Positions 2 through 35,073 are shown, counted from the first letter of the stretch. The stretch is 46,049 nt of DNA from Thermoplasmatota archaeon (GCA_029259115.1 JAPDJO010000050.1:1-46049), one strand, 5' to 3'. The notes: generated from the sequence alone by a model not told the origin. Numbers and translations are program-made.

Positions 2-562
2 CAAAGACCAGAATACATAATAGTTGGTGAGATAAGAGGAAGAGAGGCATATGTTCTCTTCCAAGCAATGGCTACGGGTCATACAACTTACTCTACGATG
101 CATGCAGACTCTCCACAATCCTTGATACATAGATTGGAGGGTAAGCCGATAAACATACCGAGAGTTATGCTCCAAGCTCTCGAGGTCATAGCTATTCAGA
201 CAATAGCCAGAGTCAAAGGTAAAAGAGTGAGAAGATGCAAACAGGTTGTAGAGATAGTCGACATTGATCCAAAAACAAAAGAAATACTGACAAATGAGGT
301 ATTCAGATGGGATCCTGTTGAGGATACATTTATCTATTCGGGAAGGAGTTACATTCTTGAGAAGATAAGGGCATCGACAGGTATGAGCAAAGAGGAGATG
401 GTTGAAGAAATAAAGAGGAGGGTAAAGATACTGGAATGGATGAGAAAGGAAGGGATAAGATCTTACAAGGAGGTAGCCAAGATAGTTGCTGAATATGCTG
501 AGAAACCTGAAGAGGTTATGAAGAGGGTTGAGGAGGGGCTAAAGAAACATGCCTCTAAGTAG
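2..562 (+). CDS. Type IV pilus/type II secretion assembly ATPase (VirB11/FlaI/PilB-like), 5'-truncated by the window edge
   Basis: Frame is open from base 2 and reads QRPEYIIVGEIRGREAYVLFQAMATGHTTYSTMHAD (Walker B IIVGE plus His box). Followed by two TadC-like genes. Confidence 0.93.
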   Translation, partial: QRPEYIIVGEIRGREAYVLFQAMATGHTTYSTMHADSPQSLIHRLEGKPINIPRVMLQALEVIAIQTIARVKGKRVRRCKQVVEIVDIDPKTKEILTNEVFRWDPVEDTFIYSGRSYILEKIRASTGMSKEEMVEEIKRRVKILEWMRKEGIRSYKEVAKIVAEYAEKPEEVMKRVEEGLKKHASK

Positions 563-1454
563 ATATAAAAAATTCTGTTATAGGCTGTTCAGGGATTTGG
601 CGGAAAACAGTGTTAGTGAGGGTCTGAAAGAAGATCTACTTAAAGCGAATATAGACATACGACCAGCTGCTTATATTGCAACAGCATGGATGAACACAAT
701 AATCTCTATAATAGTGAGTGAGATAGCGATAGTCGCTTTACTATTTCTTATCTTACCTACACTCGGATTCAATATCATCAAGCTTTCATCTCCTTCCGCA
801 ATAGATGTTTTGATTTTTCTTGTGGTGATCATGATACCCTTTGGGATCGGATTTCTGGTATATTTTATTCACCTGTTATATCCAAAAAGCAGAGCAAAAT
901 ATAGAGGAAAACGAATAGATTTCTCCCTACCCTATGCGCTCAACTTCATATCGGCTATGTCAGCTGCTGGTGCTCCACCTCACGAAATATTCATAAGCCT
1001 TTCAAAGCAGAGTATATACGGCGAGGTTAGAGAGGAGGCAGCCCGAATAGCCAAGGACATGAAACTTCTTGGTATAGATGTTGTGACAGCATTGAAAAAA
1101 GCGATGGAAAGAACGCCGTCGGAACGCTTCAAAGAATTCCTCCAAGGAGCTATTGTTACAATAACATCTGGAGGGAGATTAAAGCCATACTTCATGGCAA
1201 AAGCGGATCAATATATGAGAGAAAATAGACAAAGACAAAAAACATTTCTCGAAACTTTGACTGTTATGGCTGAGAGCTATGTTACTGCTGCGGTTGCGGG
1301 TCCACTTCTCATGTTGATTGTTCTTCCCTTACTCATGATAGTTCAGGGTAGTTTTGGTCAGATTAAAGTACTGTATCCTATCGTTGGAATTATATTACCT
1401 CTGATACATTTTGGCTTCGCTATGGCTATTCGTACCATGACACCTGAGGTGTAA
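549..1454 (+). CDS. TadC/T2SS-F family pilus platform membrane protein
   Basis: Several TM helices; IDFSLPYALNFISAMSAAG, YGEVREEAARI, TPSERFKEFLQG and LETLTVMAESY are typical archaeal TadC segments. Confidence 0.9.
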   Translation: MPLSRYKKFCYRLFRDLAENSVSEGLKEDLLKANIDIRPAAYIATAWMNTIISIIVSEIAIVALLFLILPTLGFNIIKLSSPSAIDVLIFLVVIMIPFGIGFLVYFIHLLYPKSRAKYRGKRIDFSLPYALNFISAMSAAGAPPHEIFISLSKQSIYGEVREEAARIAKDMKLLGIDVVTALKKAMERTPSERFKEFLQGAIVTITSGGRLKPYFMAKADQYMRENRQRQKTFLETLTVMAESYVTAAVAGPLLMLIVLPLLMIVQGSFGQIKVLYPIVGIILPLIHFGFAMAIRTMTPEV

Positions 1455-1456
1455 AA

Positions 1457-2392
1457 ATGCCAAGATTCAAAAAATCGGGAAGAGAAAAAAATAAAGATAT
1501 TGCGTCAATCTCGCCAGTTTTGACCTTAGAAACTCTACTCTTCAGTAAAAGGTTTGCAAATGTGGTAACTGGTATATCCGTAACATCATCAACTGTACTC
1601 ATCATACTCGCTTTATTAAGTATACTAGGTGTTGTTCAATTACCATTGTCCGTAAACGACCTGATAGTTTTGGCCATTCTGAGCGGAACATCCATCTATG
1701 GTTTCTATCAGTATTTCCGTTCGAGATATATATGGAAGATAGACGATATATTTCCGGACTTTGTCAGAGATCTTGCTGAATCAAGGAGAGCTGGTATGAC
1801 CTTTACTAAGGCTATACTTATGGCAGCAAAGAGTAACTATGGTTTACTTACTCCTCATATTAAGAAAATGGCTAGGCAGATATCTTGGGGGGCGAGTGTG
1901 CATGAAGCGATGGATGAATTTGCAAAACATATAGGAACCCCTTTGGTCAAAAGAATCATATCTCTAATAAATGAGGCTACTAGGAGTGGTGGATCAGTTA
2001 CAGATGTTCTTATGGCTGCTGCCAATGATGCCAGGGAGTATCAGTTCCTTAGAAAAGAAAGGAGAGCAAGCATATCATCCTATGTTATAGTTGTGTACGT
2101 ATCATCTTTAGTGTTCCTTCTAATAACACTGATAATTATTAAACAATTCTTGCCTATGTTTAGTGGAGAGGCAATGACAGGTTTGAGCAGTGTAGTCACG
2201 GGTACATCCGCAACGCCGCAAATGCAAGAGATCAAGCTACTCTATTTCTATGCAGTGATCATACAAAGCATCGGATCAGGTATCGTTGCAGGAGTATTCG
2301 AGGATGGGCATTTTGAATCTGGTGTAAAACATGCTTTTATACTTTCAATAATTACCTGGCTATCATATAAATTATTTGTTCCTGGAATATAA
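1457..2392 (+). CDS. Second TadB/TadC (T2SS-F family) platform membrane protein
   Basis: FPDFVRDLAESRRAGMT, YGLLTPHIKKMARQISWG, SGGSVTDVL and C-terminal SGVKHAFIL; multiple TM helices. Confidence 0.9.
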   Translation: MPRFKKSGREKNKDIASISPVLTLETLLFSKRFANVVTGISVTSSTVLIILALLSILGVVQLPLSVNDLIVLAILSGTSIYGFYQYFRSRYIWKIDDIFPDFVRDLAESRRAGMTFTKAILMAAKSNYGLLTPHIKKMARQISWGASVHEAMDEFAKHIGTPLVKRIISLINEATRSGGSVTDVLMAAANDAREYQFLRKERRASISSYVIVVYVSSLVFLLITLIIIKQFLPMFSGEAMTGLSSVVTGTSATPQMQEIKLLYFYAVIIQSIGSGIVAGVFEDGHFESGVKHAFILSIITWLSYKLFVPGI

Positions 2393-2445
2393 AATCAGAA
2401 AAATATATTACTGTCATATGGTATGAGTAAGGAGGGGATGTAAAA

Positions 2446-5400
2446 ATGAAAAAAAAGACGATTGGTAGGTTGTATAAAGCGGTATCTCCAGTAATAGGGA
2501 CCATACTTGTGGTTGCTATAATCATATCTTCTATAACCGCTGTGATGATATGGGGCATACCTTACTTAGAAAGAACCAAGGCAGAGGCTCAACAGAGAGA
2601 TGTGTATCATCAGTTAGATCTTGCAAATGAGGCTATAAGAGATCTAATAAGCAGTGGTAAAGGTTCATCGAGAGAAATTAGATTATCCATGGAATCTGGG
2701 ACAATATCATTCGAAAACGAGCAACCAAGCCATGTCCTCATGTATGCAACGAGTAGCGACTACAATTTCTCTGTCGGTGGGTTAGATGATCTTGATAACA
2801 ACTTCATATTGAATATGGAAAAGGGAAGCGCAGATAAGGCAAATATATATAGATTTAATCCAGAAACATCTCTGCCCCCATATTATAGCACATCAAGCGA
2901 GCCAACAGCCTCCTACTATGGTAGTTTCTTGAGAAGAGTTCCTTTCAATCTCACCGATTCAAATAATACTGCTTACAAGATAACGAGCGGTAGTAGTACA
3001 CCACCTTCTCCTACGTCATTCACTTCAGAATACACATCGACAGAATATCAAAATGCTGGATATGATGATGACGAGAGCAATGCTTGGCATGGAGCAACTG
3101 GTACAGATGGCAAGTTTACAAATCTGATGTATAAATTCAAGATAGGAGATTATAATGCTAGTAATTTAGAAAAGATGGAGCTGAGATGGAAAGGCATAGA
3201 TACGCTCTCGGATGGAGGGTATCAGGGATTTTACATATGGAACCGATCCTCCAGTTCTTGGGAGCAGATAGGAGGAAATGGAGTCGCTTTGAGATTCGAT
3301 GGATTAAATGATAGAATCAATGTTCCGTGCAAGGAATATCTCAAGTATAAAGGAGGAAATTTAACCATTTGTGCATGGGTGTATGTTGAGGATGGAGAAA
3401 CTAATGGAAAAATAGTTTCTAAACCATGGAATGGACAAGGTCAGTACAATTATTATCTCTACCTCACTGGTGGAAAATTGGCACTATTTGTTGGTAACGG
3501 TACAGTATCCAAATATATAGTAGATCCTGATCCTGTATCTACAAAAGAATGGCATTACGTGACTGGAGTTTTGCACAGCGATGGGCTTATGGAGCTGTAT
3601 GTGGACGGAGAACTCAAAGCATCTGATAGCTATTCCATAACTAACTGGAATCCATCAAAAGGGGATCACAACATTAATCTGTGCATAGGTTCGCTTTACC
3701 CATACGGTTCTGGATGGGCTGGCAATGAGGGCTTTTCCTTTAGAGGTTTACTGCGTGACGTGTGCATATACAATGATTCTCTTGAGCAGAGCGAAATACT
3801 CCAGAATATGGAAGGGAACATGGTTACAGATGACTTACTAGGTTGGTGGAAACTTGATGATGCCCAAGGAACAGTTGCTCATGACGTAGCTAGACGCAAC
3901 GATGGTACACTTATGGATGGATGCAAATGGATAACAAACAGGGGAACATTTGCTTTGGAATTCGATGGAGTGGATGATTATGTGGGAGTGCCTGATTTAA
4001 ACCTTCATAATTCAAATAGTTTAACTATCGAAGCATGGGTGAAAGGCAACTCCTGGGCAGGTCAACCAGCTATAGTATTTTTTGGTGATGGTATATCGGC
4101 AGGTCAGTGGTCTATCGTTTTGTCGGTTTATAATAATAAATTTAGATTTGGTTTAGAATCCGGTACAACGGATTACAACACATGGGGTAATACAGTGTTA
4201 GATACAGGCGTTTGGTATCACTTGGTAGCAGTCAAAAATGGAACAGTAGTGAGAACATATATAAATGGAGTGCAAGATGACAGCGGAACTGCCCCTTCAA
4301 CAACTAATGATGTTACTAATCATCGAATTGGAGCAATGTATACCACGAACCCAGATTATTACTTCAACGGCACCATCGACGAAGTCCGTATTTACAACAG
4401 AGCATTAACCGCTGATGAAATTTATCAGAATTATCTTGGGAATGTTACAACTGCAGGCTTAGTTTCATGGTGGAAATTTGATGAAGGGTATGGAAATGTC
4501 CTGCACGATTCTGTTGGTGAAAATCATGGTAGGATACATGGTGCACAGTGGATTGACTACAAGAATTTCGCATTAAAATTCGATGGTGAAAGAGACTATG
4601 TATTGATTCCGGATTCAGATAGCCTTGATATTTCAGACAATATTACTGTGGAGACCCGCGTATGGTATGCTGGAGGGAGTAGCAAAACTGTATGGGCAAA
4701 GGATACAGATCATGACATAGGTTGCAACCTTTACGATCCTGCAAGCGACAATTACGCTCCCGGTGACGTAGTTAGATATGCAGTGCCAGAAAATGGAACA
4801 GGGAACTTAATGATCTACGAATTCACTGGAAGTATGGATTCTCACTATGGGAGAACCGGCATATATCTTCGACTAAAGATCGGAGAAAAACCACCGGTTT
4901 CAGAAGATATAGTCAAATTGGAAGTCTGGGATTTAACGGAAAATTGCAAAGTCTTGGAAGATTTATACAAGACTTCGGATTTTGGCACTAAAGATATAAC
5001 AAAATATTGGTATGGTTACCAGATAGGACATCATCCTAGATTTTTCGCATATAGTGGACATTCTTACAGAGTGGTTGTGTACTATTATGCGAATGTCCCC
5101 GTCTATATAGAAAGATTAACATTTGATCGGTATCATAGACCACCAGTAGAGAAGGGATCAGCGTGGAGATTGTATACGACTGGTGGAACGTTCCAGTTTT
5201 TAGTTTGGCATCCAGATGGCACCTATTCATATGCAAATTATTATGGTTTGACATCATACTGGAGAGGGTGGGTGGACTTAACCGCAAGTTACAGTTCTGT
5301 AGACGGGTTCAAATTATATGTCAATGGTAACGAAGTTACACCATCCTATGTTAGATTCTTGGGTAAGAGTATAAGAACCACATCCAGTCCAGTATACATA

Positions 5401-8400
5401 GGATCCGGTTATCATAAATTTCCGGGAATGGTAGATTATGTTAGGATATATAATAGAGTTCTAACAAGTAGTGAAGTAAAACAAAACTATCTTGAGAAAG
5501 TTACGACCGACGGGCTCGTCTCTTGGTGGGATTTCAACGAGGGTTACGGAAATGTAGTGCATGATAAAATCGGTGACAATGATGGAACCATATACGGTGC
5601 AGATTGGGTCTACACAGATGGAGGCTCCTTAGAATTTGATGGTGTAGACGACTACGTATCTGGAAAGGGAACAGCAACTTTTGATGATTTCACTATAATA
5701 GCTACGGTCAAGCAAGAAGGATGGCATGGACACCATGAACCTATCTTTGCGTGGGCTAACTCAACAGATGGTTTGTATCTGATATTGAGCAAAGATAAGT
5801 ATCTGAGAGTCGGCGTAGAAGTTAATGACAATTTCCACCATGAAGGACTGTACTACATAGGGGATAACTACATTGGGAAAGAAAAGATGTATGCGGCTAG
5901 ATGGGATGGTGATACTGGTTCAGTAAAGGTTTACATAGATGGTAATTCAGTTGGCGAATCCACATCATATCCAACTGGGTCGATAGACCTAAGCAAAGGT
6001 GTTAACTTCTGTATAGGGAAGAGCACAACTGGCTACTGGGGCGAAACTAGTGCAAGATTTTGGGGAAAGATATCGGAGATTTTGGTTTACAATAGAGCAC
6101 TCAGTGATAGTGAGATACAAGATATATACTCGGGCAGTATAGTAACGAGCGGTTTAGTAGCATGGTGGAGATTTGACGAGGCTAAAGGCATAACTTTAAA
6201 TGATTTTGCTGGTAACAATATAGGAAAACTCGTTAATGGCCCGGTTTGGAGAGGAGATATACCTCCCACAAACGAGAACCTCTATGTCGAAACAATTTTA
6301 GGCAATCTTTCAAACTACGTAGATGACTCTAACTATGTAAAAATATGTGTGGTTGGTGGTAAAGGAGAAAGTTTCACTTCTCCTTCATCCTGTACATCTT
6401 GGTACTATGACAGAAACAAAGCATATTGTACATGGATAGATGCCTATAATGAGGATGAGTACTATGTGCAATACAGTACAGATGGGGGAGCCACTTGGAC
6501 TAACGATCCCAATTCACCTTACTTCCCTGGAACAACGCAATCTGAACCAATATATTTCGGTCCAGAAAAACAGATAAAATTCAGAGTAAAATCTGTTAAA
6601 GATGGCATATCTTCAGGATGGTCAACCTCTGGTTACATATATACAGCTCCAGGAAAACCAGAGAATGTTCAGGCTGTCTCTGTGTCATCGGATTCGATAA
6701 ATGTAACATGGACAGACAACTCGAGTTATGAGTCTGGATATGTTATTTATAGATCTACAAATGGTGGAAATTATGAATTTTTAACATCTGTGCCAGCTAA
6801 TACAGAATATTACCTAGACACAAGTGTAACTGCTGGTAATACCTACACATATAGAGTCTACGCGTACAAGAGCATAAGTAATCCCAAGATAAATATATAT
6901 AGTGATCCTGGAAATAGTTCTCTCGTATCCCCAACAGAATGGTGGGATACAAACTGGCAGTACTATAAAGTCTGCAATATCGATACAAACGGGTATTCAG
7001 GATACTATCAGATGAGAATAAAAGTCGGTTACAGTTCGGGGGGAGACGTATCATGTGAAGGTCATTGCCAACCAGATTTTGACGACATCCGTTTTGTCGA
7101 TACCGACAACTCGACAGTGTTGCCACATTGGAAAGAGACTTATGTGGATTCTCAATTTGCCATATTTTGGGTTAATGTTTCAGCAGATGCAATGAGTGAT
7201 GGAAAAATACTCATGTATTATGGTAACCCATCTGCTACTGATGCAAGCGATGGAGATTCAACTTTCATATTTTTTGATGATTTTACAACAGATACAACAG
7301 GCAATTATAACATAGTTGCAGGAGATGATAATAAAGCCCACTTGGTAGGCAATAATTTCTTCAGTGTGCAAGATGGAGTTCGAATGATATGGAAGACTAA
7401 AATTACAAATTTTGATGCTAATCAATGGGGCTCTTATATAGGTTTTTATTATGGAGATGTGTTAAATTCTCCACGTTACATGAATAACAGATGGTGGAGT
7501 ATTATTAGTAGCGACACAGATGCTGGAGCAAGCGATAGTCCATTAACATTAGTTTTGCAGGCAGGTTCAGAAAAAGCAGGGACTGTTACAAAAGTAAAAC
7601 AGGTAATGCAATTTAGCTTGAATAGAGCATATTATTTTGAGCATTGTATGTCTCAAACAAAAATAAAAACAAGAGCCAGAGATGCTAATTTTTTGGAGAT
7701 TACATCTGCAGAGCTAACAACAGGAATAGCTGATATTTCCACACTAAACTATGCAATGATTATGCTATGGCATTGTAATGAAGATGGCACAGAGTGGGAT
7801 TGGTCATGGAATTCCGTAGAACAAGCAGTAAGAATGTACGTAAAGAGAGATGGTTGGAGTATAATAGATACACTTAGTGATTGGTTTGGTATTGCTAAAT
7901 GGGTTGATACAGAACCACGATGGAGCGGTTTCAGTAGTGAACAAACTCAACCAACAGTTCTATGCCTTTCAGGTGACACTCGAGTAGAGATGATTAGTGG
8001 TGAGTACAAGGAGATACAAGATATAGGAAAAGGAGACATACTTCTATCCTACGATCCTGAAAGAGGAGAGTATACATCATGCAAGGTCGTATCTGTAGGT
8101 ACATCTACCCAGCAAGTTTATAGTATAAATGATGGACTGTTGTACATCACGGATACCCATCCATTGTATGCAAGAAAAAGTGATGGGTATGAAGGCTGGG
8201 TTACGATAAATCCAGAAAAGATGAAAGAACATTATGGTATTAGTGAGGTTAGAAAGCTAGAGATCGGAGACAAACTTTATTGCAGATACGATGGATGGGA
8301 TGTAGAGGTAACGTCGATAGTACCTCAAGATGTGAGAGAGGTTTACAATTTAGAGTTAACATACCCATACACATTCTTTGCCAACGGAACACTTACTAGA

Positions 8401-9354
8401 GCTATGCCTTCTACTCACATGAGAAGCTCCTCTCACACGATGTATGAAAACTATGTCGAGTTGTCTATATATTTCATACAGAATGATTCTACTCCACCTT
8501 CTACAACCATAACTTCTACGGATCCAGTACTCGTTGATGGGAAAACAACCTCATCTACAATAACTTTCTACTGGTATAGTACTGACAATCTATGTCCGTC
8601 TGACGATCTTGTCTATTGCTGGATGCTTGTTGGCAGAGATTTGGATTGGAGCAATTGGACTTCTCAAACTTATGTAACATACACAGATCTGGTTCCTGGA
8701 GACTATGTATTCAAGGTAAGAGCCAAAGATCTTGCAGGTAATGTTGAAAGACCATCATCACTCAACACATTATCATTTACCGTATTGGAGGCTAGCGAAA
8801 CCATTTCGATATCTGCATCACCAGGAGTACCAACTACAGTGACTACTAGTGAACCCCTCAAAGGTTTTGTCCTCATTGACTTATACAACGGCAGTGTCAA
8901 CCTAGGTAAGATATGGCTCTTGACACCAGGAGAAGTAGAGTATAGAATACCGACGAGTGAGGGAACTTATGGAGTCTCTCTACTCGATGGAGGGATATCT
9001 ATGATATATCCTGATGGTAGCGCTATTGTAGGAGAGCCCATAATCTCCATGGGGAATTCCATGATCCATTTACATTTCATACATATGTTTGGTAGTACAT
9101 TCTCTTTCTCAGGTAGAGGTACGTGCAAATTCAAGTTTACGCTTTCTCAAAGCAAGATACTCCAGTATCGCGTACCTGTTTATAATCTGAGATTCCAGTT
9201 CTTTGGCGAAACTTCAGAGGGATGGACCAACTATTTCAAGATATATCATTCATTCAAAAAGATGGGAGAAAATGAGGTGGCTAAATTCAATCAACCTGTA
9301 AACTTGGTATTGGGATACTCATCGATAAAGGTTGAGGAGAGTGGGTTTGGATGA
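2446..9354 (+). CDS. Giant pilin-like adhesin (2302 aa): class III signal peptide, 4 LamG domains, 2 FN3, DUF2341, Hint domain, Y_Y_Y/Ig domain, pilin-scaffold C-terminus
   Basis: N-terminus KKKTIGRLYKA|VSPVIGTILVVAII; repeated ALxFDGxxDY...IDEVRIYNRALT...GLVSWWKFDEG LamG units; FN3 (PENVQAVSVSSDSINVTWTDNSSYESGYVIYRS); DUF2341 (DFDDIRF...FWVNV...MYYGN...FIFFDDF); CLSGDT Hint start. GGAGGGG SD upstream. Confidence 0.88.
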   Translation: MKKKTIGRLYKAVSPVIGTILVVAIIISSITAVMIWGIPYLERTKAEAQQRDVYHQLDLANEAIRDLISSGKGSSREIRLSMESGTISFENEQPSHVLMYATSSDYNFSVGGLDDLDNNFILNMEKGSADKANIYRFNPETSLPPYYSTSSEPTASYYGSFLRRVPFNLTDSNNTAYKITSGSSTPPSPTSFTSEYTSTEYQNAGYDDDESNAWHGATGTDGKFTNLMYKFKIGDYNASNLEKMELRWKGIDTLSDGGYQGFYIWNRSSSSWEQIGGNGVALRFDGLNDRINVPCKEYLKYKGGNLTICAWVYVEDGETNGKIVSKPWNGQGQYNYYLYLTGGKLALFVGNGTVSKYIVDPDPVSTKEWHYVTGVLHSDGLMELYVDGELKASDSYSITNWNPSKGDHNINLCIGSLYPYGSGWAGNEGFSFRGLLRDVCIYNDSLEQSEILQNMEGNMVTDDLLGWWKLDDAQGTVAHDVARRNDGTLMDGCKWITNRGTFALEFDGVDDYVGVPDLNLHNSNSLTIEAWVKGNSWAGQPAIVFFGDGISAGQWSIVLSVYNNKFRFGLESGTTDYNTWGNTVLDTGVWYHLVAVKNGTVVRTYINGVQDDSGTAPSTTNDVTNHRIGAMYTTNPDYYFNGTIDEVRIYNRALTADEIYQNYLGNVTTAGLVSWWKFDEGYGNVLHDSVGENHGRIHGAQWIDYKNFALKFDGERDYVLIPDSDSLDISDNITVETRVWYAGGSSKTVWAKDTDHDIGCNLYDPASDNYAPGDVVRYAVPENGTGNLMIYEFTGSMDSHYGRTGIYLRLKIGEKPPVSEDIVKLEVWDLTENCKVLEDLYKTSDFGTKDITKYWYGYQIGHHPRFFAYSGHSYRVVVYYYANVPVYIERLTFDRYHRPPVEKGSAWRLYTTGGTFQFLVWHPDGTYSYANYYGLTSYWRGWVDLTASYSSVDGFKLYVNGNEVTPSYVRFLGKSIRTTSSPVYIGSGYHKFPGMVDYVRIYNRVLTSSEVKQNYLEKVTTDGLVSWWDFNEGYGNVVHDKIGDNDGTIYGADWVYTDGGSLEFDGVDDYVSGKGTATFDDFTIIATVKQEGWHGHHEPIFAWANSTDGLYLILSKDKYLRVGVEVNDNFHHEGLYYIGDNYIGKEKMYAARWDGDTGSVKVYIDGNSVGESTSYPTGSIDLSKGVNFCIGKSTTGYWGETSARFWGKISEILVYNRALSDSEIQDIYSGSIVTSGLVAWWRFDEAKGITLNDFAGNNIGKLVNGPVWRGDIPPTNENLYVETILGNLSNYVDDSNYVKICVVGGKGESFTSPSSCTSWYYDRNKAYCTWIDAYNEDEYYVQYSTDGGATWTNDPNSPYFPGTTQSEPIYFGPEKQIKFRVKSVKDGISSGWSTSGYIYTAPGKPENVQAVSVSSDSINVTWTDNSSYESGYVIYRSTNGGNYEFLTSVPANTEYYLDTSVTAGNTYTYRVYAYKSISNPKINIYSDPGNSSLVSPTEWWDTNWQYYKVCNIDTNGYSGYYQMRIKVGYSSGGDVSCEGHCQPDFDDIRFVDTDNSTVLPHWKETYVDSQFAIFWVNVSADAMSDGKILMYYGNPSATDASDGDSTFIFFDDFTTDTTGNYNIVAGDDNKAHLVGNNFFSVQDGVRMIWKTKITNFDANQWGSYIGFYYGDVLNSPRYMNNRWWSIISSDTDAGASDSPLTLVLQAGSEKAGTVTKVKQVMQFSLNRAYYFEHCMSQTKIKTRARDANFLEITSAELTTGIADISTLNYAMIMLWHCNEDGTEWDWSWNSVEQAVRMYVKRDGWSIIDTLSDWFGIAKWVDTEPRWSGFSSEQTQPTVLCLSGDTRVEMISGEYKEIQDIGKGDILLSYDPERGEYTSCKVVSVGTSTQQVYSINDGLLYITDTHPLYARKSDGYEGWVTINPEKMKEHYGISEVRKLEIGDKLYCRYDGWDVEVTSIVPQDVREVYNLELTYPYTFFANGTLTRAMPSTHMRSSSHTMYENYVELSIYFIQNDSTPPSTTITSTDPVLVDGKTTSSTITFYWYSTDNLCPSDDLVYCWMLVGRDLDWSNWTSQTYVTYTDLVPGDYVFKVRAKDLAGNVERPSSLNTLSFTVLEASETISISASPGVPTTVTTSEPLKGFVLIDLYNGSVNLGKIWLLTPGEVEYRIPTSEGTYGVSLLDGGISMIYPDGSAIVGEPIISMGNSMIHLHFIHMFGSTFSFSGRGTCKFKFTLSQSKILQYRVPVYNLRFQFFGETSEGWTNYFKIYHSFKKMGENEVAKFNQPVNLVLGYSSIKVEESGFG
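7963..8403 (+). other. Hint domain within the giant pilin; N-terminal catalytic residues intact, C-terminal His-Asn replaced by Arg-Ala
   Basis: Block A CLSGDTRVEMISGEYKEIQDI, block B ITDTHP, blocks F/G VYNLELTYPYTFFANGTLTRA|M where VHN|C/S/T is canonical; 147 aa, no endonuclease. Confidence 0.87.
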
Positions 9355-11867
9355 GGAGGGATTTTGCAGTATCTCAAGTCATAGGCTTTTTACTATCTTT
9401 TGTGATAGCATCCTCACTTCTTGTTACTGCGATATTCTTCACTACAACTCTTGTTAGTGAAAGACTAGAGAGATCTGCAGAGATCCAAGCTACCGAGATA
9501 TTGAACAGAGTAGTTGATGCTGTAGTCGAAGCTGCTTATGTAAAACAGACTTATCCAAATGCAGATTATTGCAAAACATTGGATATACCCACATCCATAG
9601 GCGGTCACCAGTATTATATAGAATTTACAGATGACAAGATATATCTGAATTTCACGACAATGCACTCGTCCATAAACGTTTCAACATACAAGTTGGGAAT
9701 ATTGAACGTGGGTCTCTCTGGTAAGGTATACTCTTCTTCTGGTAAAGTAAAGATATATTGTAACAGGAGCCGATATCTTTACAAATTTGATTTTGGCACG
9801 GTTACATCTCCAAAATACATGAGAGAGCCATTTACTAGGGTAGGAGATAGCTGTAGCAACACCAATCCACCGTGGCCAACCCAATATGATGCTTTCAAGT
9901 ATAGGGTACCTATATTCCTTATAAACCCGAATACAGATCCTCAATACTCTACAGTTTATGATTTTCAGGTTAGGATTCAACTCGATCCGTCCACTATAGA
10001 TTATGACAAGATAAACAGCAATGGCTCTGATCTGAGATTCTATGATCCAACATCGGGAACCGAGCTGCCATACTGGATTGAGGTTTGGAAATACGGAGGG
10101 AGATCTTTTGTTTGGGTAAAGGTGCCCGAGATCTCTCATGATACTGGTAGGTTGATATACATGTATTATGGAAATAAAAAAGCCCAACCCAAGAGTAATG
10201 GATCTCAAGTTTTCTTACTCTTCGATGATTTTAACAGTAAAGACACGACTAAGTGGGCATTTAAAAATGGAAATGCGAAAGTGGAAGATGGTTTTCTCGT
10301 TTTTAATGGAGAATCTGCTGTGGTAAGTAAGACATTCACAGTGCCAGATGAATGTATAGTCTCAGCACTTGTATACTCGGTTGGAAATACAACAAGAGAG
10401 GGTAGCATATTCGTAAGATGCCAAGATCAGCTTCAATACTACAACAGTGGATATATGCTTTCTTCAGGTAATCTATCAGATCCAAGTAGAAATTTGGCAA
10501 TAATAAGAGACAATGCCACGGTAATAGCAAACTCTTCATCGAATTCTCCAATGTTAAGTGGAGTTGTCTACAAATTGGTTTTTGCTGTATGGAATGACAC
10601 ATACTTTGGGATGAGGCTGGTATATGACGATGCCTCTCAGGATTTCATTCTGGATGGAGATAGTTATGCAGCCTGTATAGATACTACTTATACTGGTGGA
10701 TATCTTGGGTTATGTGCAGCGAATGATGGAGATTTTGTAACAAAGTTTGATTGGATAATAGTTTACAAGGCGATAAATCAATCCATCAGCTACACTCTAG
10801 GTGGAGAGGACTCTAAATTTTTCTGGTGGGATGATGTAAGTGTTCTCTATGCAAGATATAACAGCAATGGAGGAGCATTGTACGGAGACTCTGTTTTTTC
10901 AAATATATCTCTAAATCCAAGCAGAAGTCCAACCACGCTTTACCTGAAGCTTCCAGATACATATCTAAGTACGTTTGATATGTTGTACAAATGGAGCTTT
11001 GAAGAAGATTTTTCAGGATCTGCTGATGGTAGATATGCCTATGAAGACGCTGGATCAGATCCCATAGAGATCCACGGGGCACAATGGGTTGAGGGTAAGT
11101 TCGGGACCGCTCTCTACTTTGATGGCTCAGATGATTATGCAAAAACGGTTTCCACAATCACAATGCCCAGAAACGTCACATTTGTAGCCTGGATAAAGCC
11201 GTATTTTGATTACAATGATGGTCTGAATCACGAGTGGTTGTACTGGAGTGCTGGAGGTACATACATGCATGCATATAAACATAGCAATGGAGAGACCTAC
11301 TTTGTTATAAATGGTCTGAACTCATGGCAGGGGGTTCATGCTGTCATTCCTTTTTCTTCAGGAGATTTCCATCTTTTTGTAGGTGTCTACAATGCTTTAA
11401 ATGATACCCTCCTGATGTACTGGGATGGAGAGCTTATAGGGACTGCATCGGGAAGCGGTCCTCTATCGACGAGTGCGGGATATCTCTATGTTGGATCAGC
11501 TGGCAGCAGTAGATTCTTCCATGGTATCATAGACGAGATAAGGATATATCAGAGAGCACTTAGTGGAGATGAGATCAGAGAGTACTATAATAAGGCAAGT
11601 CATCGAATATATAGTGTTTCTTTTGCTGTCGGTGATGAGGATAGAGATATAGATAATGAGTGGATAAATTCTTCTTACCTACAAAGAGGAAAAAAGATAG
11701 ACACCCTGTCTGGAGAATACAAAAGGGGATGGTTCTATGTAGAAGTTGATGATGGGATTCTTGATATCACATTCTATGATAGTGATTCCGGAGATGACTT
11801 TTACTGGAATATATGTATGCTTACTGTTGAGGAGGGGATAAGAGGGGTTAAGGGTGAGGGAAGATGA
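9351..11867 (+). CDS. Pilin-like protein (838 aa) with DUF2341, LamG and a split galactose-binding-like beta-sandwich
   Basis: RRDFA|VSQVIGFLLSFVIA class III signal; GSDLRFYD...LPYWIE...VWVKVP...YMYYGN...FLLFDDF (DUF2341); ALYFDGSDDY...IDEIRIYQRALS (LamG); ATGA overlap with upstream gene. Confidence 0.85.
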   Translation: MRRDFAVSQVIGFLLSFVIASSLLVTAIFFTTTLVSERLERSAEIQATEILNRVVDAVVEAAYVKQTYPNADYCKTLDIPTSIGGHQYYIEFTDDKIYLNFTTMHSSINVSTYKLGILNVGLSGKVYSSSGKVKIYCNRSRYLYKFDFGTVTSPKYMREPFTRVGDSCSNTNPPWPTQYDAFKYRVPIFLINPNTDPQYSTVYDFQVRIQLDPSTIDYDKINSNGSDLRFYDPTSGTELPYWIEVWKYGGRSFVWVKVPEISHDTGRLIYMYYGNKKAQPKSNGSQVFLLFDDFNSKDTTKWAFKNGNAKVEDGFLVFNGESAVVSKTFTVPDECIVSALVYSVGNTTREGSIFVRCQDQLQYYNSGYMLSSGNLSDPSRNLAIIRDNATVIANSSSNSPMLSGVVYKLVFAVWNDTYFGMRLVYDDASQDFILDGDSYAACIDTTYTGGYLGLCAANDGDFVTKFDWIIVYKAINQSISYTLGGEDSKFFWWDDVSVLYARYNSNGGALYGDSVFSNISLNPSRSPTTLYLKLPDTYLSTFDMLYKWSFEEDFSGSADGRYAYEDAGSDPIEIHGAQWVEGKFGTALYFDGSDDYAKTVSTITMPRNVTFVAWIKPYFDYNDGLNHEWLYWSAGGTYMHAYKHSNGETYFVINGLNSWQGVHAVIPFSSGDFHLFVGVYNALNDTLLMYWDGELIGTASGSGPLSTSAGYLYVGSAGSSRFFHGIIDEIRIYQRALSGDEIREYYNKASHRIYSVSFAVGDEDRDIDNEWINSSYLQRGKKIDTLSGEYKRGWFYVEVDDGILDITFYDSDSGDDFYWNICMLTVEEGIRGVKGEGR

Positions 11868-12307
11868 ACTGTAAGGCACAGTTCAATGTTATAGAAGCAA
11901 TAATCGCTGTTGGTATAGTGTTTGCAGCGATATACATAGTTTCTTCGATGGTCGGAAGCCCTGTAATAACAACAGCAAGCACAACAAACCAGTTGAAGGT
12001 ATTGGCAGATGATATTCTGAGATCACTGGATGCGAGGAACGAATCAATACCTCCGAGATATCATCATAGTCTCCTTGTCAAGTACATAGCTGAGAGGGAT
12101 ATCTCTTCTCTCACTTCCATAATAAACGATACCATTCCACCTACAGCTCTCTATAATCTCTACCTATATAACGCATCTAATCGCACCACAACGCTTCTAT
12201 ATCCAAGTAATGCCCTACCCCCAACTGGAAATGTTGCGAAGGCTAACAGGATGATAGTCTACGATGGCTATATCTATGAGGTTGAGTTGGAGGTGTGGAC
12301 GGTATGA
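11864..12307 (+). CDS. Small pilin-like protein (class III signal peptide, Gln at +1, Glu at +6)
   Basis: MNCKA|QFNVIEAIIAVGIVFAAIYIV; C-terminal YEVELEVW beta-strand typical of euryarchaeal minor pilins; ATGA coupling. Confidence 0.8.
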   Translation: MNCKAQFNVIEAIIAVGIVFAAIYIVSSMVGSPVITTASTTNQLKVLADDILRSLDARNESIPPRYHHSLLVKYIAERDISSLTSIINDTIPPTALYNLYLYNASNRTTTLLYPSNALPPTGNVAKANRMIVYDGYIYEVELEVWTV

Positions 12308-12798
12308 GACTAAAGAAACATTTAAATAATATAAGTTACAGAGTATATAGTGAGGAGAAAAATGCTGTCATACCTCATGCCATCATATATCAAGGTGAGG
12401 AGGGACAGATGATGTTGTTAACATCTGTCCTGATAGCAGTTGGAGTTATTCTTCTCTCTTCGATAGCTCTATCTCTGTCAAATATCGGCACCCTACTCCC
12501 TGTAGAAAAAAGCAGATCTTTACTTCCAGAGTATGAGAATATAAGAGACAAACTTGGAGACTATTTCGATGATCTCATAAGCGAGAACGCATCGGATATG
12601 AAATGGATAACCTATGTGTTCAACAGAGCAAAAGAGGAAATATTCTTCATAGAGTCCAAACACATGAGATACTTTGACGCTACTTTGGATAGAATCACCT
12701 ATCTAGCAAATGGTGATGTGGAGATAGTTGTGGACCTCTATCTGAGAGATGATGTTTCCTCTATAAATGAGGAGGTGGTATACCGAGTAAAAGTTTAG
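12304..12798 (+). CDS. Small pilin-like protein with an unusually long leader
   Basis: EEG|QMMLLTSVLIAVGVILLSSIALSL class III-type site; start placed at ATG 12304, which overlaps the upstream stop (ATGA). Confidence 0.72.
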   Translation: MRLKKHLNNISYRVYSEEKNAVIPHAIIYQGEEGQMMLLTSVLIAVGVILLSSIALSLSNIGTLLPVEKSRSLLPEYENIRDKLGDYFDDLISENASDMKWITYVFNRAKEEIFFIESKHMRYFDATLDRITYLANGDVEIVVDLYLRDDVSSINEEVVYRVKV

Positions 12799-12802
12799 TG
12801 AG

Positions 12803-12836
12803 GTATATAAATTATAATTAAGTTTAAATATTAATA
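12803..12836 (+). promoter_or_regulatory. AT-rich TATA-like tract; possible internal promoter for the double-Hint pilin gene
   Basis: GTATATAAATTATAATTAAGTTTAAATATTAAT in the only uncoupled gap among the pilin genes. Confidence 0.35.
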
Positions 12837-12861
12837 TGTGTATATGGAATATGGTGAGAAT

Positions 12862-15800
12862 ATGAGAAGGTTGTATGGAGATAGGAGGGGGGTTGCTTCA
12901 CCTTTAGAGTTCACAACAGCCTTTGCTGTATTCTTTGTAGCATTCGCTTTAATGGCGGTGTATGTTGGTAATGTCCTTGCACCTTTTGAAACAAACAACG
13001 CAAATTATGAAGCCGTAGCTATAGAGATAGCAGAGAAATTGGTGAACAATCCAGGGAGAACATTAAAGGGAAATGTTGAGTGGGAACTAGAGCCTGACCA
13101 GCTAGCATATCTTGGTTTAGCGATGCCAAAGCCAGTATACGATGTGTATTTCTATGGAAACGGAACCATAGAGGTGGTGGTTGACAAGGTAAATGAATAC
13201 TTTGATCTAGCAGTTGAAGACCTCTCATACTCCCCAAGAACACCAACAGTGATAGAAGGCTCGAAGATATACGTATCTTTCAAGGTAAAGAATCTTATGA
13301 GTGGTAATGCATCTGCGTTTAACTACACGGTCCAGATAGACAATTATGTTCAGTATCAGGGAAGATACAACAAGAGTCTAGCACCTGGAGAGGTTGCAAG
13401 CTTTGACAACATAGAGGCAACCGTTCCTTCCGATGGAAAGAGCTATTATGTCCTGATGGTTTCAATCTTCCCAGATGTTCAGGATGCGGATATATCAAAT
13501 AACGCAGCATCCCTAACACTAATTGTTGAAAGCGGAGGAGATACTGACACAGACATAGATACGGATATAGATGGAGATAGCGACTGGTTGGTGATAGAAA
13601 TAGATGGTCCAACGAGCATCTATGTTCCTATAAATCCGAGAACAGGTTCACAGACCGGTAGTATAGGTGGAAGCACATCATCTGGAGGAATAAAATACGC
13701 GAATGTGACCGCTACTTATACGGTTGAGAGATTAGAGAGGAACAGTGGAGCGTCTGTTGCGTTACCTGTTTACTTCTGGTGGACAGGTGGTCCCTCTGGA
13801 CCAGCGGAGGGGTTAGAACTCCGATCATATAAGGTTACCTTCACCAAGGACGATGAAGGAAATCACATGATATCCTGCAGTGCAAGAGATGCTGAGGGCG
13901 TGACAGGTGATGCTCGCTCACTACTAGTTCATGTCGAGGTTGAGAAGATAACTGTTGTGATAAACGGTCCTACCAATGTAGAGGCTGGCAGAATATATAC
14001 GTATACGATAACAGCATATCATAATGGTGAGGAATTCTGGTTAGCTGGCAGATCTCGAGCTTATGATGTGCATTGGTCAACAAATGGACTAGTTAGCGAG
14101 GGATTCAATGGAGCTTGGTACAAATGGAATGAACCAGGCAACTACACTGTGGCTGTGTGGGGTAAGATAGACTATAAAGGAGAGATACTTGGATATCCTT
14201 TCTACGCATCGATATCTGTAAGAGTAAATGGCTCAGATTCATCTGACACATGTTTCCTAGCAGGAACAAAGATACTGATGGCTGATGGAACAACTAAGAA
14301 CATAGAAGACGTTAAAGTAGGAGATCTTGTGAAGTCTTATGATACTGAAACTGGAGAAATTAAGGTGAGTAAGGTTACAGAGGTGTTCCATCACAGCCCA
14401 GATGAGATGGGAGATTACTATCTAGTGATAAACAACGAACTCAAAGTAACTCCGAATCATCCGTTCTATGTCAATGGAAAATGGATTCCAGCAGAAGAGA
14501 TAAAGGTTGGAGATGTGCTGGGAACAATGAAGGTTAAATCCATAGAGAAGGTTTACAAGAAGGTTCCAACATACAACATAGAGGTTGAGCCGTATCACAG
14601 TTACATTCTTGCATTCTCAAATCTAGTGGTTCACAATGGTGCAGCTTCTGGATCACAGACAGGTAGTGGCTCGGTAACACCTCTTTACAGTCTGTCTGTA
14701 GGTGTAACTCCTTCATCTGCTGGATATGTTGATATAACTCCAGCAAAGAATGGTTACTCAAGTGGAGAGACAGTTACTCTGGAGGCAAAGGCATATTCTG
14801 GATACACCTTTGATCACTGGTCTGGAGATGCGAGCGGAGATAATCCAAAGATAACTATAACGATGAACTCAAACAAACAGGTTACCGCTGTTTTCAGGTC
14901 AACTAGTGGAGCTGGAGCTGTACAGGGAACTCAACAATCAGCAAATGCTGTTCTTGTCCCATTGAACGGAGACATATCTGGAGGATCTGGAGGACCAAGT
15001 TTGGATCTCGGTGGGACTGCAGAATCTCTAGGAAATGTGTTAGTAATTACTGGAAACAAGGGAAGCACAAGCAATCCCTTCTACAGTACACCTGTAGGCA
15101 CCCAGCAGGTAAATGTAAATCCATTCAACGGTGGAGAGAACACATGCTTCCTAGCAGGGACAAAGATACTGATGGCTGATGGATCTCTAAAGAACATAGA
15201 AGATGTCAAAGTTGGAGATCTTGTGAAGTCTTATGATACTGAGACTGGAGAGATAAAGACAGGAAAGGTCACGAAGGTATTCCACTTCGGTGCTGACAAG
15301 ATGGGATACTACTACCTGAAAATAAATGGCAATCTAATGTTAACTCCAAACCACATGCTCTATGTCAATGGAAGATGGACTCCTGCTGGAGAGGTAAAGG
15401 TTGGAGATACACTCGGATTTGGAACAAAGGTTTACAGCATAGAGAAGGTATACTATGATTTCAGACCCGTTTATGATCTTGAGGTCGAGCCTTACCACAA
15501 CTACATGGTTCTCACCTCATCCGGTACAGTACTTGCCCACAATGCTACAGCATCCGCGATACTGATAGAGGGAGCCAGTGCTGATAGTGGAGACTCTCAG
15601 CTTGTAGACTCTTCAAGTACAGCAGGAATCGAGGAAGAGGCAAATACAGACGATGATGTAGGTGATAGTGATGATAGCGATATAGATGAGCCTCAGGAGG
15701 AGACAGATACGGAAGAGGAACTTGATGAAGATGTTCAGATCCTGCCGAAAGGTGACTCCACAACTTACGTCTACAACGGAACATCTGTAGATCCATCTGC

Positions 15801-16236
15801 AAAGATTTCAATAATGATATCAAGAATGTACGAGATGGTCCCGAAACCATCTGGAGGAAGTAATGACTGTAGATACAGGAGAATTGAGTATTCTGGGACA
15901 ACAACATCAGGAATACCTTTCCTTAGGGTACTGATGACATCAACTAAGGAAGTGAGCTACGCTACGATAATGCCTGAGAAGATAGAGGCTCTAAGATACA
16001 TACCTTATGAGAAGGCAAAGGATGCGTTACTCGGAGATGCTGGTATAAACGATGTTGACTTCATGATAAGAATAACGAGACTCGATGGATCAGAGATACT
16101 CAGCTATGGTGCTCAATACAAGGATTCATCAACAGCGATTGCAAGTTACAGTAGACAGATAGTGATATATCCAAACGAGATCCTAGAATACGACGGCTTT
16201 ATACCAGCAATACTAACGGTAACGGTATTCAAGTAA
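12862..16236 (+). CDS. Large pilin-like protein (~1124 aa): class III signal, CARDB, Ig/PKD-like domains, two Hint domains flanking an InlB B-repeat, acidic linker, pilin-scaffold C-terminus
   Basis: MRRLYGDRRG|VASPLEFTTAFAVFFVAF; GGTGA SD before ATG 12862; CARDB (DLAVEDLSYSP...DADISNNAAS); two CFLAGTKILMADG...HN units; YTFDHWSGDASG B-repeat. Confidence 0.87.
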   Translation: MRRLYGDRRGVASPLEFTTAFAVFFVAFALMAVYVGNVLAPFETNNANYEAVAIEIAEKLVNNPGRTLKGNVEWELEPDQLAYLGLAMPKPVYDVYFYGNGTIEVVVDKVNEYFDLAVEDLSYSPRTPTVIEGSKIYVSFKVKNLMSGNASAFNYTVQIDNYVQYQGRYNKSLAPGEVASFDNIEATVPSDGKSYYVLMVSIFPDVQDADISNNAASLTLIVESGGDTDTDIDTDIDGDSDWLVIEIDGPTSIYVPINPRTGSQTGSIGGSTSSGGIKYANVTATYTVERLERNSGASVALPVYFWWTGGPSGPAEGLELRSYKVTFTKDDEGNHMISCSARDAEGVTGDARSLLVHVEVEKITVVINGPTNVEAGRIYTYTITAYHNGEEFWLAGRSRAYDVHWSTNGLVSEGFNGAWYKWNEPGNYTVAVWGKIDYKGEILGYPFYASISVRVNGSDSSDTCFLAGTKILMADGTTKNIEDVKVGDLVKSYDTETGEIKVSKVTEVFHHSPDEMGDYYLVINNELKVTPNHPFYVNGKWIPAEEIKVGDVLGTMKVKSIEKVYKKVPTYNIEVEPYHSYILAFSNLVVHNGAASGSQTGSGSVTPLYSLSVGVTPSSAGYVDITPAKNGYSSGETVTLEAKAYSGYTFDHWSGDASGDNPKITITMNSNKQVTAVFRSTSGAGAVQGTQQSANAVLVPLNGDISGGSGGPSLDLGGTAESLGNVLVITGNKGSTSNPFYSTPVGTQQVNVNPFNGGENTCFLAGTKILMADGSLKNIEDVKVGDLVKSYDTETGEIKTGKVTKVFHFGADKMGYYYLKINGNLMLTPNHMLYVNGRWTPAGEVKVGDTLGFGTKVYSIEKVYYDFRPVYDLEVEPYHNYMVLTSSGTVLAHNATASAILIEGASADSGDSQLVDSSSTAGIEEEANTDDDVGDSDDSDIDEPQEETDTEEELDEDVQILPKGDSTTYVYNGTSVDPSAKISIMISRMYEMVPKPSGGSNDCRYRRIEYSGTTTSGIPFLRVLMTSTKEVSYATIMPEKIEALRYIPYEKAKDALLGDAGINDVDFMIRITRLDGSEILSYGAQYKDSSTAIASYSRQIVIYPNEILEYDGFIPAILTVTVFK
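13540..13584 (+). repeat. Asp-X dipeptide repeat linker (DTDTDIDTDIDGDSD)
   Basis: Degenerate 6-bp periodicity (gat act gac aca gac ata gat acg gat ata ...). Confidence 0.7.
14251..14637 (+). other. Hint (BIL-A/PT-HINT-like) domain 1; ends His-Asn, +1 residue Gly
   Basis: CFLAGTKILMADG...VTPNHP...TYNIEVEPYHSY...VVHN|GAASG; 129 aa. Confidence 0.92.
15145..15543 (+). other. Hint (BIL-A/PT-HINT-like) domain 2; ends His-Asn, +1 residue Ala
   Basis: CFLAGTKILMADG...LTPNHM...VYDLEVEPYHNY...LAHN|ATASA; 133 aa; first 38 aa are 36/38 identical to Hint 1. Confidence 0.92.
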
Positions 16237-16239
16237 TCT

Positions 16240-18066: not shown

Positions 18067-18094
18067 ATGCTGGATTGATATGCCTCTACTCTTT

Positions 18095-20683: not shown

Positions 20684-20794
20684 TCGAACATCACCTCAGA
20701 GTATACTATTGTATGTTTTCACGACTTATAAATATTTTGATTTCGTTATAAAAATAAGCCAACTTTTAAATACAGCTTATCTATACAAGGGTTG

Positions 20795-21543: not shown

Positions 21544-21675
21544 GAAAGTTTTTTAATCTGAGTATATAAAAATCCCTCATCTTATCTTAAGAAGGCAATC
21601 AAAAAAGAGAAGGTATATTTTGTACCAATAAATTTATATATTGAGATAGATATAAATTTAGTTCGGGTGAGAGTA

Positions 21676-30679: not shown

Positions 30680-31342
30680 TGGAAGAAAGATATATCAGGA
30701 TATTGAAGGAAATCGCTCTCCTTGGGGCTATCGACAGAGAAATACCGTTATCATCTTATCAGTTATCCAAAATTATTAGTTGCAGTCAGCAATCTGCTTC
30801 CAGATATTTGATAGACATGGAGAAAAAAGGGTATATCGAGAGGAAGATAGGTATAAAGAAACAAAGAATAAGAATAACAGAAAAGGGGAGAGGGCTTTTA
30901 GAGAAGGAGTATCTGGATTACAAGAGGATATTCAGCAAAGAGAGGAGGATTTCGTTAAAAGGTAAGGTTATATCTGGACTCGGAGAAGGGAAATATTACA
31001 CCAATATAGAAGGCTATGTTAAACAATTCCTAAAAAAACTTGGCTTTAAACCTGTTCCTGGAACCTTGAATGTGAGGATATCGAAAGAGTATACTGATAG
31101 ACTAAAAGAGCTATCAGAGCTTGAAGGTATAGAGATAAGAGGTTTCTCCACCAAAGATAGATCCTTCGGTGGAGCAAAATGTTTCCGTGCAAAGATAGAT
31201 AACGAAGATGCGGTAGCTATTTTACCAAGCAGATCACACTATTCAGATATCTTGGAGTTTATAGCTCCTTACAAACTTAGAGAGAGGTTAAATTTAAGAG
31301 ATGGAGACTCTGTGAATATCGTTATAGATCTGGGTGGTGAAG

Positions 31343-31365: not shown

Positions 31366-35073
<3,708 letters not shown>

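Follow-up and report, generated by a model that had tools for sequence, protein, structure and literature searches.

The window analysed here is a 46,049-nt stretch of DNA from a Thermoplasmatota archaeon (GCA_029259115.1, JAPDJO010000050.1:1-46049), corresponding to contig C12 of a 1.40-Mb genome that comprises 94 contigs and is 98.7% complete. Positions 2-16236 carry eight genes on the + strand, identified from open reading frame (ORF) calls and from Pfam and NCBIfam matches, which overlap (by 14, 4, 4, and 13 nt) or are closely spaced (gaps of 2, 53, and 39 nt). To judge by their content, these genes encode an archaeal type IV pilus-like machine, with an ATPase, a split FlaJ/PilC-type platform, and five pilin-like proteins, called P4 to P8 here. 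The first and the last of the pilin-like proteins contain three Hint domains, one in P4 and two in P8. This layout had been proposed in a preliminary description of the window and is confirmed by the ORFs, the Pfam and NCBIfam matches, a profile search of the PDB, and AlphaFold2 (AF2) models.

The first gene (2-562, +) encodes the C-terminal 186 amino acids (aa) of a FlaI/PilB-like pilus assembly ATPase (T2SSE, E 5.3e-16; PilB3_C, E 2.8e-8; NCBIfam FlaI, E 1.9e-47, positions 349-520 of 527), its 5' part being cut off by the start of the contig. The next two genes, at 549-1454 (+) and 1457-2392 (+, TadC2), each encode one T2SSF domain (E 3.4e-20 and 5.9e-19, respectively). Since they match positions 15-249 and 269-539 of the 555-position FlaJ/UpsF profile, they correspond to the N and C halves of one split platform protein, not to two full TadC proteins as first described. 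Both a FlaI/PilB-type ATPase and a polytopic T2SSF platform are thus present, as in archaeal type IV pili, the ATPase lying only partly inside the window. A gene for a Peptidase_A24 prepilin peptidase is found on contig C4, clustered (C4:26575-35158) with four small Pilin_N genes (ORFs of 137-167 aa) and a second T2SSF locus, and a small major pilin for the machine of the window may be encoded in that cluster.

The five genes after the platform, all on the + strand, encode a short charged leader followed by a hydrophobic helix, and their class-III-type leader motifs were read from the translations. At the level of Pfam families, Pilin_N and DUF7289 pass for the N-terminal end of P4 and DUF7266 for that of P5, the matches of P6 and P8 are below threshold, and P7 has none. 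P4 (2446-9354, +) is a pilin-like adhesin of 2302 aa, with Pilin_N and DUF7289 at aa 11-92 and the N-terminus YKA/VSPVIGTILVVAI, in which the putative cleavage site reads KA/VSPVIGT (a slash marks a putative cleavage site or a Hint border throughout). A stretch of about 1980 aa, with four LamG domains, DUF2341, fn3, Y_Y_Y, and one Hint, interrupts its DUF7289-type core. P8 (12838-16236, +), identified by domain scan and orthologue alignment, is a pilin-like protein of 1132 aa with the N-terminus DRRG/VASPLEF, whose translation probably starts at the ATG at codon 9. The pilin core of P8 is split by about 880 aa that comprise CARDB, Ig-like domains, Hint1, an InlB-B-repeat, Hint2, and an acidic linker. 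The N part of its pilin fold (aa 19-125; 12892-13212, +), which contains the alpha-1 helix and a WE..LGLA motif, is conserved in the orthologue alignment and enters the docking model described below, and the C part (aa 1005-1132; 15850-16233, +), a beta-sheet, is 37% identical to the C part of a 240-aa orthologue. By these domain compositions, both P4 and P8 appear to be adhesin-bearing pilins.

The three genes in between lack Hints. P5 (9351-11867, +) is a pilin-like protein of 838 aa with a DUF7266 N-terminal end, DUF2341, and LamG (Pfam). P6 (11864-12307, +) is a small pilin-like protein of 147 aa (KAQ/FNVIE) with a weak DUF7288 match, and relatives have orthologues of 27-33% identity at the same gene position. 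P7 (12295-12798, +; EEGQ/MMLLTSVLIAVGV, the helix beginning with MMLLTSV) has 167 aa and an uncertain start codon, and was recognized by motif and position, its orthologues having in common a [KN]GQ motif followed by a hydrophobic helix and the same position. Pfam gave no family for P7 and no pilin family in 16 P6- and P7-like orthologues, so the pilin nature of these two proteins rests on their N-terminal motifs, their position, and weak DUF7288 matches.

Both Hints of P8 belong to a subtype that we call S1 (CFLAGT..TPNH..LVHN), which aligns end to end with the bacterial intein-like (BIL) domain of Clostridium thermocellum (2lwy). Hint1 (aa 472-600; 14251-14637, +) is a type A BIL-like domain with the motifs CFLAGT..TPNH..VVHN, followed by Gly at position +1, and Hint2 (aa 770-902; 15145-15543, +) has CFLAGT..TPNH..LAHN, followed by Ala. 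An InlB B-repeat-like domain (Flg_new_2, E 6.3e-13) occupies aa 620-688 between them (14695-14901, +). The Hints of P8 score above the PT-HINT cut-off (84.3 vs 27.7 bits) and also pass the Pfam models Intein_splicing and Hint, and the NCBIfam models of the intein N-terminal and C-terminal domains pass for P8 as well. Against the PDB, Hint1 matches 2lwy over its full length (E 1e-12), and its best sequence match is 8w20 (E 1.5e-13). Hint1 and Hint2 are 69% identical in amino acids and 75.7% in nucleotides, with a ratio of nonsynonymous to synonymous substitution rates (dN/dS) of 0.22 at a dS of 1.06.

The Hint of P4 (aa 1840-1986; 7963-8403, +) belongs to a second subtype, S2 (C[FL]PxGT..DHPL..GWAAxxP..FFANG.LV[SH]N), which is closest to the BIL2 domain of Tetrahymena BUBL1 and was recognized with the subtype profile, AF2, and Foldseek. 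Its motifs are CLSGDT..TDTH..TLTRA, followed by Met at +1; Cys1 and DTHP are kept, and the terminal Asn is lost, the domain ending in RA. This segment is below the Pfam cut-offs (Vint, 19.6 vs 27, and no listing for PF07591). It is nevertheless a genuine Hint, because it aligns with 14 relatives of subtype S2, because the S2 profile matches BIL2 (6y75) over its full length with E 7.6e-18, and because its AF2 model, with a mean predicted local distance difference test score (pLDDT) of 93.1, matches BIL2 in Foldseek with a template modelling (TM) score of 0.76-0.81. A terminal Asn is found in 14 of the 15 S2 Hints, the P4 Hint of the window being the sole exception, so that at most the reaction at its upstream junction would be possible.

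All three Hints of the window keep Cys1 and the block-B TxxH, and their length of 129-147 aa is too short for an endonuclease. The absence of an endonuclease and of a Cys, Ser, or Thr at +1 (Gly, Ala, and Met instead), as stated in the preliminary description, is therefore correct. The term "non-splicing" derived from this absence does not follow for the Hints of P8, since type A BILs of this make-up can splice by aminolysis, according to a review (PMC4031507). In the same review, type A BILs, described from bacteria, have a C-terminal His-Asn and no +1 nucleophile, form a thioester at their N-terminus, are cleaved at their C-end by Asn cyclisation, and can ligate their flanks by aminolysis, although cleavage products dominate. 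The N-terminal Cys or Ser and the block-B TxxH typical of this type are found in all three Hints of the window, and the C-terminal His-Asn without a C-flanking Cys, Ser, or Thr is found in Hint1 and Hint2 of P8 and not in the Hint of P4. The two pilins thus differ in Hint subtype and in the presence of the terminal Asn, and the different chemistry in the two that the preliminary description inferred is plausible.

To survey the functional residues we combined the 3 Hints of the window with 27 from nine loci of relatives with the same type of pilin cassette (type A, see below) and 1 from a further relative (L124), which makes 31 in total. The catalytic residues are directly visible in the alignment: Cys1, the block-B Thr, and the block-B His are invariant (31/31), and the terminal Asn is present in 27, preceded by His in 21 and by Ser in 6. 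The residue following this Asn is variable (A6, S5, T4, P2, D2, K2, Q2, and one each of V, E, L, and G), and it is non-nucleophilic in 18 of the 27 Hints. In all 17 Hint pairs of at least 55% identity, the proportion of nonsynonymous differences (pN, 0-0.30) is lower than that of synonymous differences (pS, 0.01-0.91). For pairs with a computable dS, dN/dS is 0.11-0.52, values that are rough because dS is near or at saturation in most pairs. The invariant residues together with pN below pS argue against dead remnants.

Both Hint-bearing pilins appear to be pilin folds that were split by insertions. The N and C pieces of P4 are adjacent in P4-like paralogues of 332-338 aa from relatives, positions 2-81 of the DUF7289 profile being matched by the N part of the window's P4 and positions 101-201 by a Hint-less paralogue in its C part. 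Likewise, aa 5-100 and 134-240 of the 240-aa P8-like orthologue, which has no insertion, match the two ends of P8. From this adjacency in short homologues, we conclude that the pilin cores of P4 and P8 are interrupted by about 1980 and 880 aa of inserted sequence, respectively, and that this inserted sequence contains the Hints. The AF2 model of a P4-like protein of 584 aa (pLDDT 82.7) has an N-terminal helix of 60 residues and is structurally most similar to BIL2 and 2lwy, and its only internal low-confidence stretches are at the borders of the Hint (residues 143-145 and 283-289).

A complex prediction with the two halves of P8 (aa 19-125 and 1005-1132) gave an interface score (ipSAE) of 0.78 (0.78, 0.78, and 0.77 in the individual runs), compared to 0.01 for the best of three controls. 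The runs share at least 65% of contacts, and the pLDDT of the partners is at least 67. Among 157 solved complexes, 116 attain this ipSAE mark, as do 2 of 215 mismatched pairs, counts that are only a rough calibration here because a custom alignment was used. In the predicted interface, aa 54-73, which form the C-terminal half of the helix, and residues 82-97 contact the strands at 1042-1077, 1101-1111, and 1126-1130, which in this model is the usual helix-on-sheet packing of pilins. The two halves of P8 are thus predicted to dock, in a model with controls.

We used TadC2, which has orthologues in 32 of 40 relatives (48-58% identity, E <= 1.2e-75), as an orthology anchor, and scanned all 32 loci with a hidden Markov model of the Hints (those of the window and their matches) and by BLASTP comparison with N- and C-terminal segments of the pilins in the window. 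Three types of locus are found after TadC2. Type A, with pilins of the same P4 to P8 type, occurs in 10 loci, 9 of which have Hints, and the remaining one breaks off after 819 aa of the first pilin. Type B, with "AVSEIxGT" pilins, occurs in 17 loci and has no Hints (0/17). Finally, 5 loci, including three from genomes of the same genus, have no pilin genes after TadC2; in one same-genus genome of this last kind (G004) a Hint-bearing P4-like gene is found on another contig, and in L124, another of the five, a Hint-bearing ORF is on the opposite strand. Within the type A cassettes, 11 of the 18 P4-like genes contain Hints, all 8 complete cassettes have them in the gene or genes that follow P7, and no Hint is found in the 8 P5-like, 8 P6-like, and 8 P7-like genes. 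The preliminary description would have failed if the Hints were sporadic or decaying in orthologues; they are instead kept in this cassette (9/10) and under selection, with invariant Cys, Thr, and His and a dN/dS of roughly 0.1-0.5.

A class-wide search of 197 genomes, 118 of them from the order of the window, was made with a query that joins the N part of the pilin to residues 1-55 of a Hint. Alignments crossing the junction between the two are found in at least 33 places, in at least 23 of the 197 genomes and at least 14 genera, all listed ones being from the order of the window, and none is found among the matches listed for the other 79 genomes. A large protein database contains a few tens of such P4-like proteins with a Hint, none of them named. 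In most P4-likes, an S1 Hint directly follows a conserved strand, YWLND-T/C, at aa 112-181, and the same site reads YWLDPG in Hint-less paralogues. The region after the Hint is too variable to align in these pilins, and no clean empty site can be defined downstream. Thus, of the conserved position and terminal residues that the preliminary description looked to, Cys1 (31/31), the terminal Asn (27/31), and the P4-like site are kept, and the position and number of Hints otherwise vary.

In two genomes of the same genus (L093 and L106), TadC2 is directly followed by the genes for S8e, SRP19, a serine recombinase, and TrkA. In the window, about 18.4 kb (2393-20791) lie between TadC2 and S8e, made up of the five pilin genes and two surface-protein genes on the reverse strand, and SRP19 is separated from the recombinase by a further surface-protein gene (21667-25035). 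Because there are same-genus genomes without the cassette between TadC2 and S8e, it is an accessory element in this genus. In another relative, two adjacent P4-like paralogues with 41% protein identity (L105:3380-3812 and L105:5259-5691) share a tract of 433 nt that is 100% identical and extends from 20 nt before the Cys1 codon to inside the codon of the terminal Asn, which suggests that the Hint alone was converted or copied very recently, although the tract may be an assembly artefact.

Hints of both subtypes also occur outside this cassette, in giant Sec-type surface proteins of relatives (ORFs of 2763-6638 aa), in DPANN, in Methanosarcinales, and in many bacteria, some of them in pilin-like proteins. 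The specificity for pili implied by the preliminary description is therefore not retained. A relative from the same family has giant Sec-signal proteins with Hints back to back, 9 in a protein of at least 2924 aa (L129:159-8930, +) and 6 in a protein of 2759 aa (L128:230-8509, -). The junctions in the former read HN/T(x0-3)C, so that the "exteins" between neighbours have 1-4 residues, with Thr at +1. Among bacteria, a protein from Patescibacteria (L065:9239-10516, +) has a pilin-like N-terminus (GFTIIELLLV) and a Hint at aa 256-403, with a secretion ATPase nearby, a pilin-like protein from Clostridia (L061:8819-10477, +) has a Hint at aa 399-546, and the database protein P0089 has both N_methyl and PT-HINT families.

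BIL and PT-HINT domains are self-cutters in bacterial secreted toxins and adhesins, and their natural roles are poorly understood. The Hints of P8 resemble the type A BIL of C. thermocellum in their HINT fold of about 130 aa, Cys1, TxxH, terminal His-Asn, lack of a conserved +1 nucleophile, and variable exported hosts, and the S1 Hint of a relative matches 2lwy in Foldseek with a probability of 1.00 and a TM score of 0.87 normalised to the target. They differ in that the host in the window is an archaeal pilin-like protein with a putative class III signal, whose fold is divided by the insertion in which the Hint lies, and in that this site is conserved between genera. Subtype S2 shares with BIL2 (6y75, 6tmm) an extra segment after block B and the C-terminal motif NFFANG.L. 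Unlike BIL2, which follows a ubiquitin-like domain and ends in HN, the Hint of P4 ends in RA, is predicted to be extracellular, and follows domains of the DUF2341/LamG type in place of a ubiquitin-like domain.

With the PT-HINT (PF07591) of polymorphic toxins, P8 has in common its score above the cut-off and its best PDB match (8w20_A, 1368 aa, annotated as an intein C-terminal splicing domain-containing protein). A PT-HINT that releases a toxin was rejected as a candidate, since there is no C-terminal toxin and the last 128 aa of P8 are the conserved beta-sheet part of the pilin, common to the 240-aa orthologue without Hint. Canonical inteins usually reside in conserved sites of replication and repair proteins. 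A canonical (class 1) intein was likewise set aside, the +1 residues in the window being Gly, Ala, and Met and the hosts being exported adhesins with variable inserts instead of conserved proteins, even though the P4-like S1 site, YWLND-T/C, is itself conserved. Dead remnants were discarded as a candidate on the basis of the invariant catalytic residues and pN below pS. Compared to the archaeal type IV pili surveyed in PMC4858521, the locus has the ATPase, the T2SSF platform, the pilin-like N-termini, and, in the genome, the prepilin peptidase, and it differs in having a platform split in two genes and multi-kb adhesin insertions with Hints in its pilins.

In Hedgehog proteins, a Hint-type thioester is passed on to cholesterol. 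Gram-positive pili have adhesins with internal thioesters, and some surface proteins are autoproteolytic and two-chain. The likeness of the latter systems to P4 and P8 is one of concept only, a reactive thioester or a self-inflicted cut after which the chains stay joined non-covalently on a surface fibre, and the folds and the chemistry are unrelated.

We hypothesize that the pilin Hints perform an extracellular autoprocessing of the BIL type, in which the pilin adhesins would be cleaved and their chains held together by the split pilin fold, and we consider this moderately probable. After export, the Hint would fold outside the cell, and an N-S acyl shift of Cys1 at the upstream junction would turn its bond to the residue before it into a thioester. 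Asn cyclisation would also cut the downstream junction of P8, leading to cleavage at one or both junctions, and in a minor fraction the flanks would be rejoined by aminolysis, giving a Hint-free spliced form; in P4, only the upstream bond would be attacked. The insertion in P8 separates the alpha-1 helix from the beta-sheet part. As the halves of the pilin fold are predicted to pack together, they would not come apart after the cut, and the mature pilin-adhesin would consist of two chains or lack the Hint. Several points weigh against this proposal. The activity of the Hints is deduced from their residues, as are the occurrence, site, and timing of cleavage, and the cleaving, ligating, or arming of adhesins put forward in the preliminary description is likewise inferred. 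The terminal Asn is lost in 4 of the 31 Hints, including the P4 Hint of the window, and the Ser or Thr at +1 in 9 of 27 Hints suggests that some could splice canonically. Purifying selection is estimated from rough dN/dS values. The docked pieces are halves of one fold, which tend to pass such a test, so that the model indicates likeness to a single pilin domain and is no proof that cut pieces stay bound. The P4 of the window has the Hint-less form of the YWLND-T site and a different Hint near aa 1840, and Hints vary in position and in number, from 1 to 5 per pilin. Finally, the arrays of 6 to 9 Hints in L128 and L129 are unexplained by simple cleavage.

The wide distribution of both subtypes, in non-pilin Sec-signal giants such as those of L128 and L129, in DPANN, Methanosarcinales, and many bacteria, and in the bacterial pilin-like hosts, would also be expected if the Hints were a generic variability or mobile module. 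Such a module would be unadapted to the pilus and would travel with variable adhesin cassettes of any exported giant protein, pilins being one host among others, or promote their recombination, its conservation reflecting self-maintenance (it must excise or cleave to spare its host) and gene conversion. The variable position and copy number, the coincidence of the identical tract with the Hint in otherwise divergent paralogues, and the absence of the whole cassette from the TadC2 locus of same-genus genomes agree with such behaviour. Nevertheless, only the first and last pilins of this cassette type have Hints, with none in the P5-, P6-, and P7-likes or in the 17 loci of the other type, one P4-like site is conserved across at least 14 genera, and a search of the 1.4-Mb genome with PF07591 and the S2 profile found no Hint beyond the three in P4 and P8, so that in this genome Hints occur only in pilins. 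We therefore regard this explanation as unlikely, and it would in any case be compatible with autoprocessing, not exclusive of it.

The fate of the thioester may also differ from hydrolysis or splicing, in that an amine or hydroxyl of another pilin subunit, of a cell-surface polymer, or of a target surface could resolve it into an isopeptide or ester link, which we consider quite improbable. In favour of such a ligation, the S2 subtype, including the P4 Hint, is closest to BIL2 in sequence and fold, and BIL2 forms an isopeptide bond with the epsilon-amine of Lys without ATP, as reported in PMC8616854. Moreover, the P4 Hint has lost the Asn for the downstream cut and keeps Cys1 and TxxH, and the P8 Hints flank an InlB-B-repeat, a fold described as beta-grasp-like in PMC8900821, echoing the BIL-UBL-BIL layout. 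We hold it to be no less improbable that the pilin Hints are, more specifically, a ligase-free conjugation device that would hand the pilus-anchored N-fragment, or the beta-grasp-like domain of P8, to an adjacent subunit, to the cell envelope, or to the surface of a target. Against a ligation to such a hypothetical acceptor, the layout of P8 with two flanking Hints is not kept in orthologues, most of which have one Hint and one of which has five in tandem, and the terminal Asn is kept in nearly all S2 Hints. In addition, the N-extein of most P4-likes would be a bare pilin N part, and the identity to BIL2 is just 23-24%. The passing NCBIfam Intein_Nterm and intein_Cterm models in P8, the Ser or Thr at +1 in a third of the Asn-ending Hints, and the degenerate C-end of the P4 Hint could further suggest ordinary self-splicing mini-inteins, or dead structural remnants, without a role in the mature protein. 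This we judge very improbable, as the +1 residues are non-nucleophilic in the window and variable across relatives, the hosts are exported and fast-evolving proteins and not conserved cytoplasmic enzymes, the solved structures closest to the Hints are those of BIL domains and not of inteins, and the catalytic residues are invariant with pN below pS.

The pilus locus is flanked in the window by genes of the surface type. A 608-aa protein with a lipoprotein-like N-terminal end (LYGC) is encoded at 16240-18066 (-), an 862-aa protein with PKD and a caspase-like Peptidase_C14 at 18095-20683 (-), and a 1122-aa protein at 21667-25035 (+), which has three InlB-B-repeat (Flg_new_2) domains, the same domain as between the Hints of P8. 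Further downstream, the window contains a gene for a PolX-PHP polymerase followed by an overlapping gene for a bacterial-type NAD-dependent DNA ligase with the full domain set including BRCT (31334-35073, +), and an ERCC4 nuclease gene (36104-36775).

The domain type and its chemistry are already known; what is new is the host, the conserved position within a pilin fold that is split, and the fact that just two subunits of the cassette carry Hints. In agreement with the preliminary description, which knew of no characterised archaeal pilin with a Hint, our searches of the openly available literature, main texts without supplements, found no account of pilins with Hint or BIL domains among the matches listed. 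The main text of the archaeal type IV pilus survey (PMC4858521) contains no occurrence of "Hint" or "intein".

These proteins provide a well-defined and conserved host context for Hints of the BIL type, in at least 14 genera of one Thermoplasmata order and with intact catalytic residues. They make the role of an extracellular Hint for its host protein directly testable, since the predicted fragment ends are clear, the P4 Hint without Asn is a natural control, and Hint-less paralogues are available for comparison. Small, Cys-dependent Hints without an endonuclease are also candidate tools for protein engineering. If ligation occurred, archaeal pili would be cross-linked or would adhere by covalent bonds, and BUBL and Hedgehog chemistry would have a prokaryotic counterpart outside the cell. 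If the proposed autoprocessing is true, post-translational self-processing would join the steps of archaeal pilus biogenesis.

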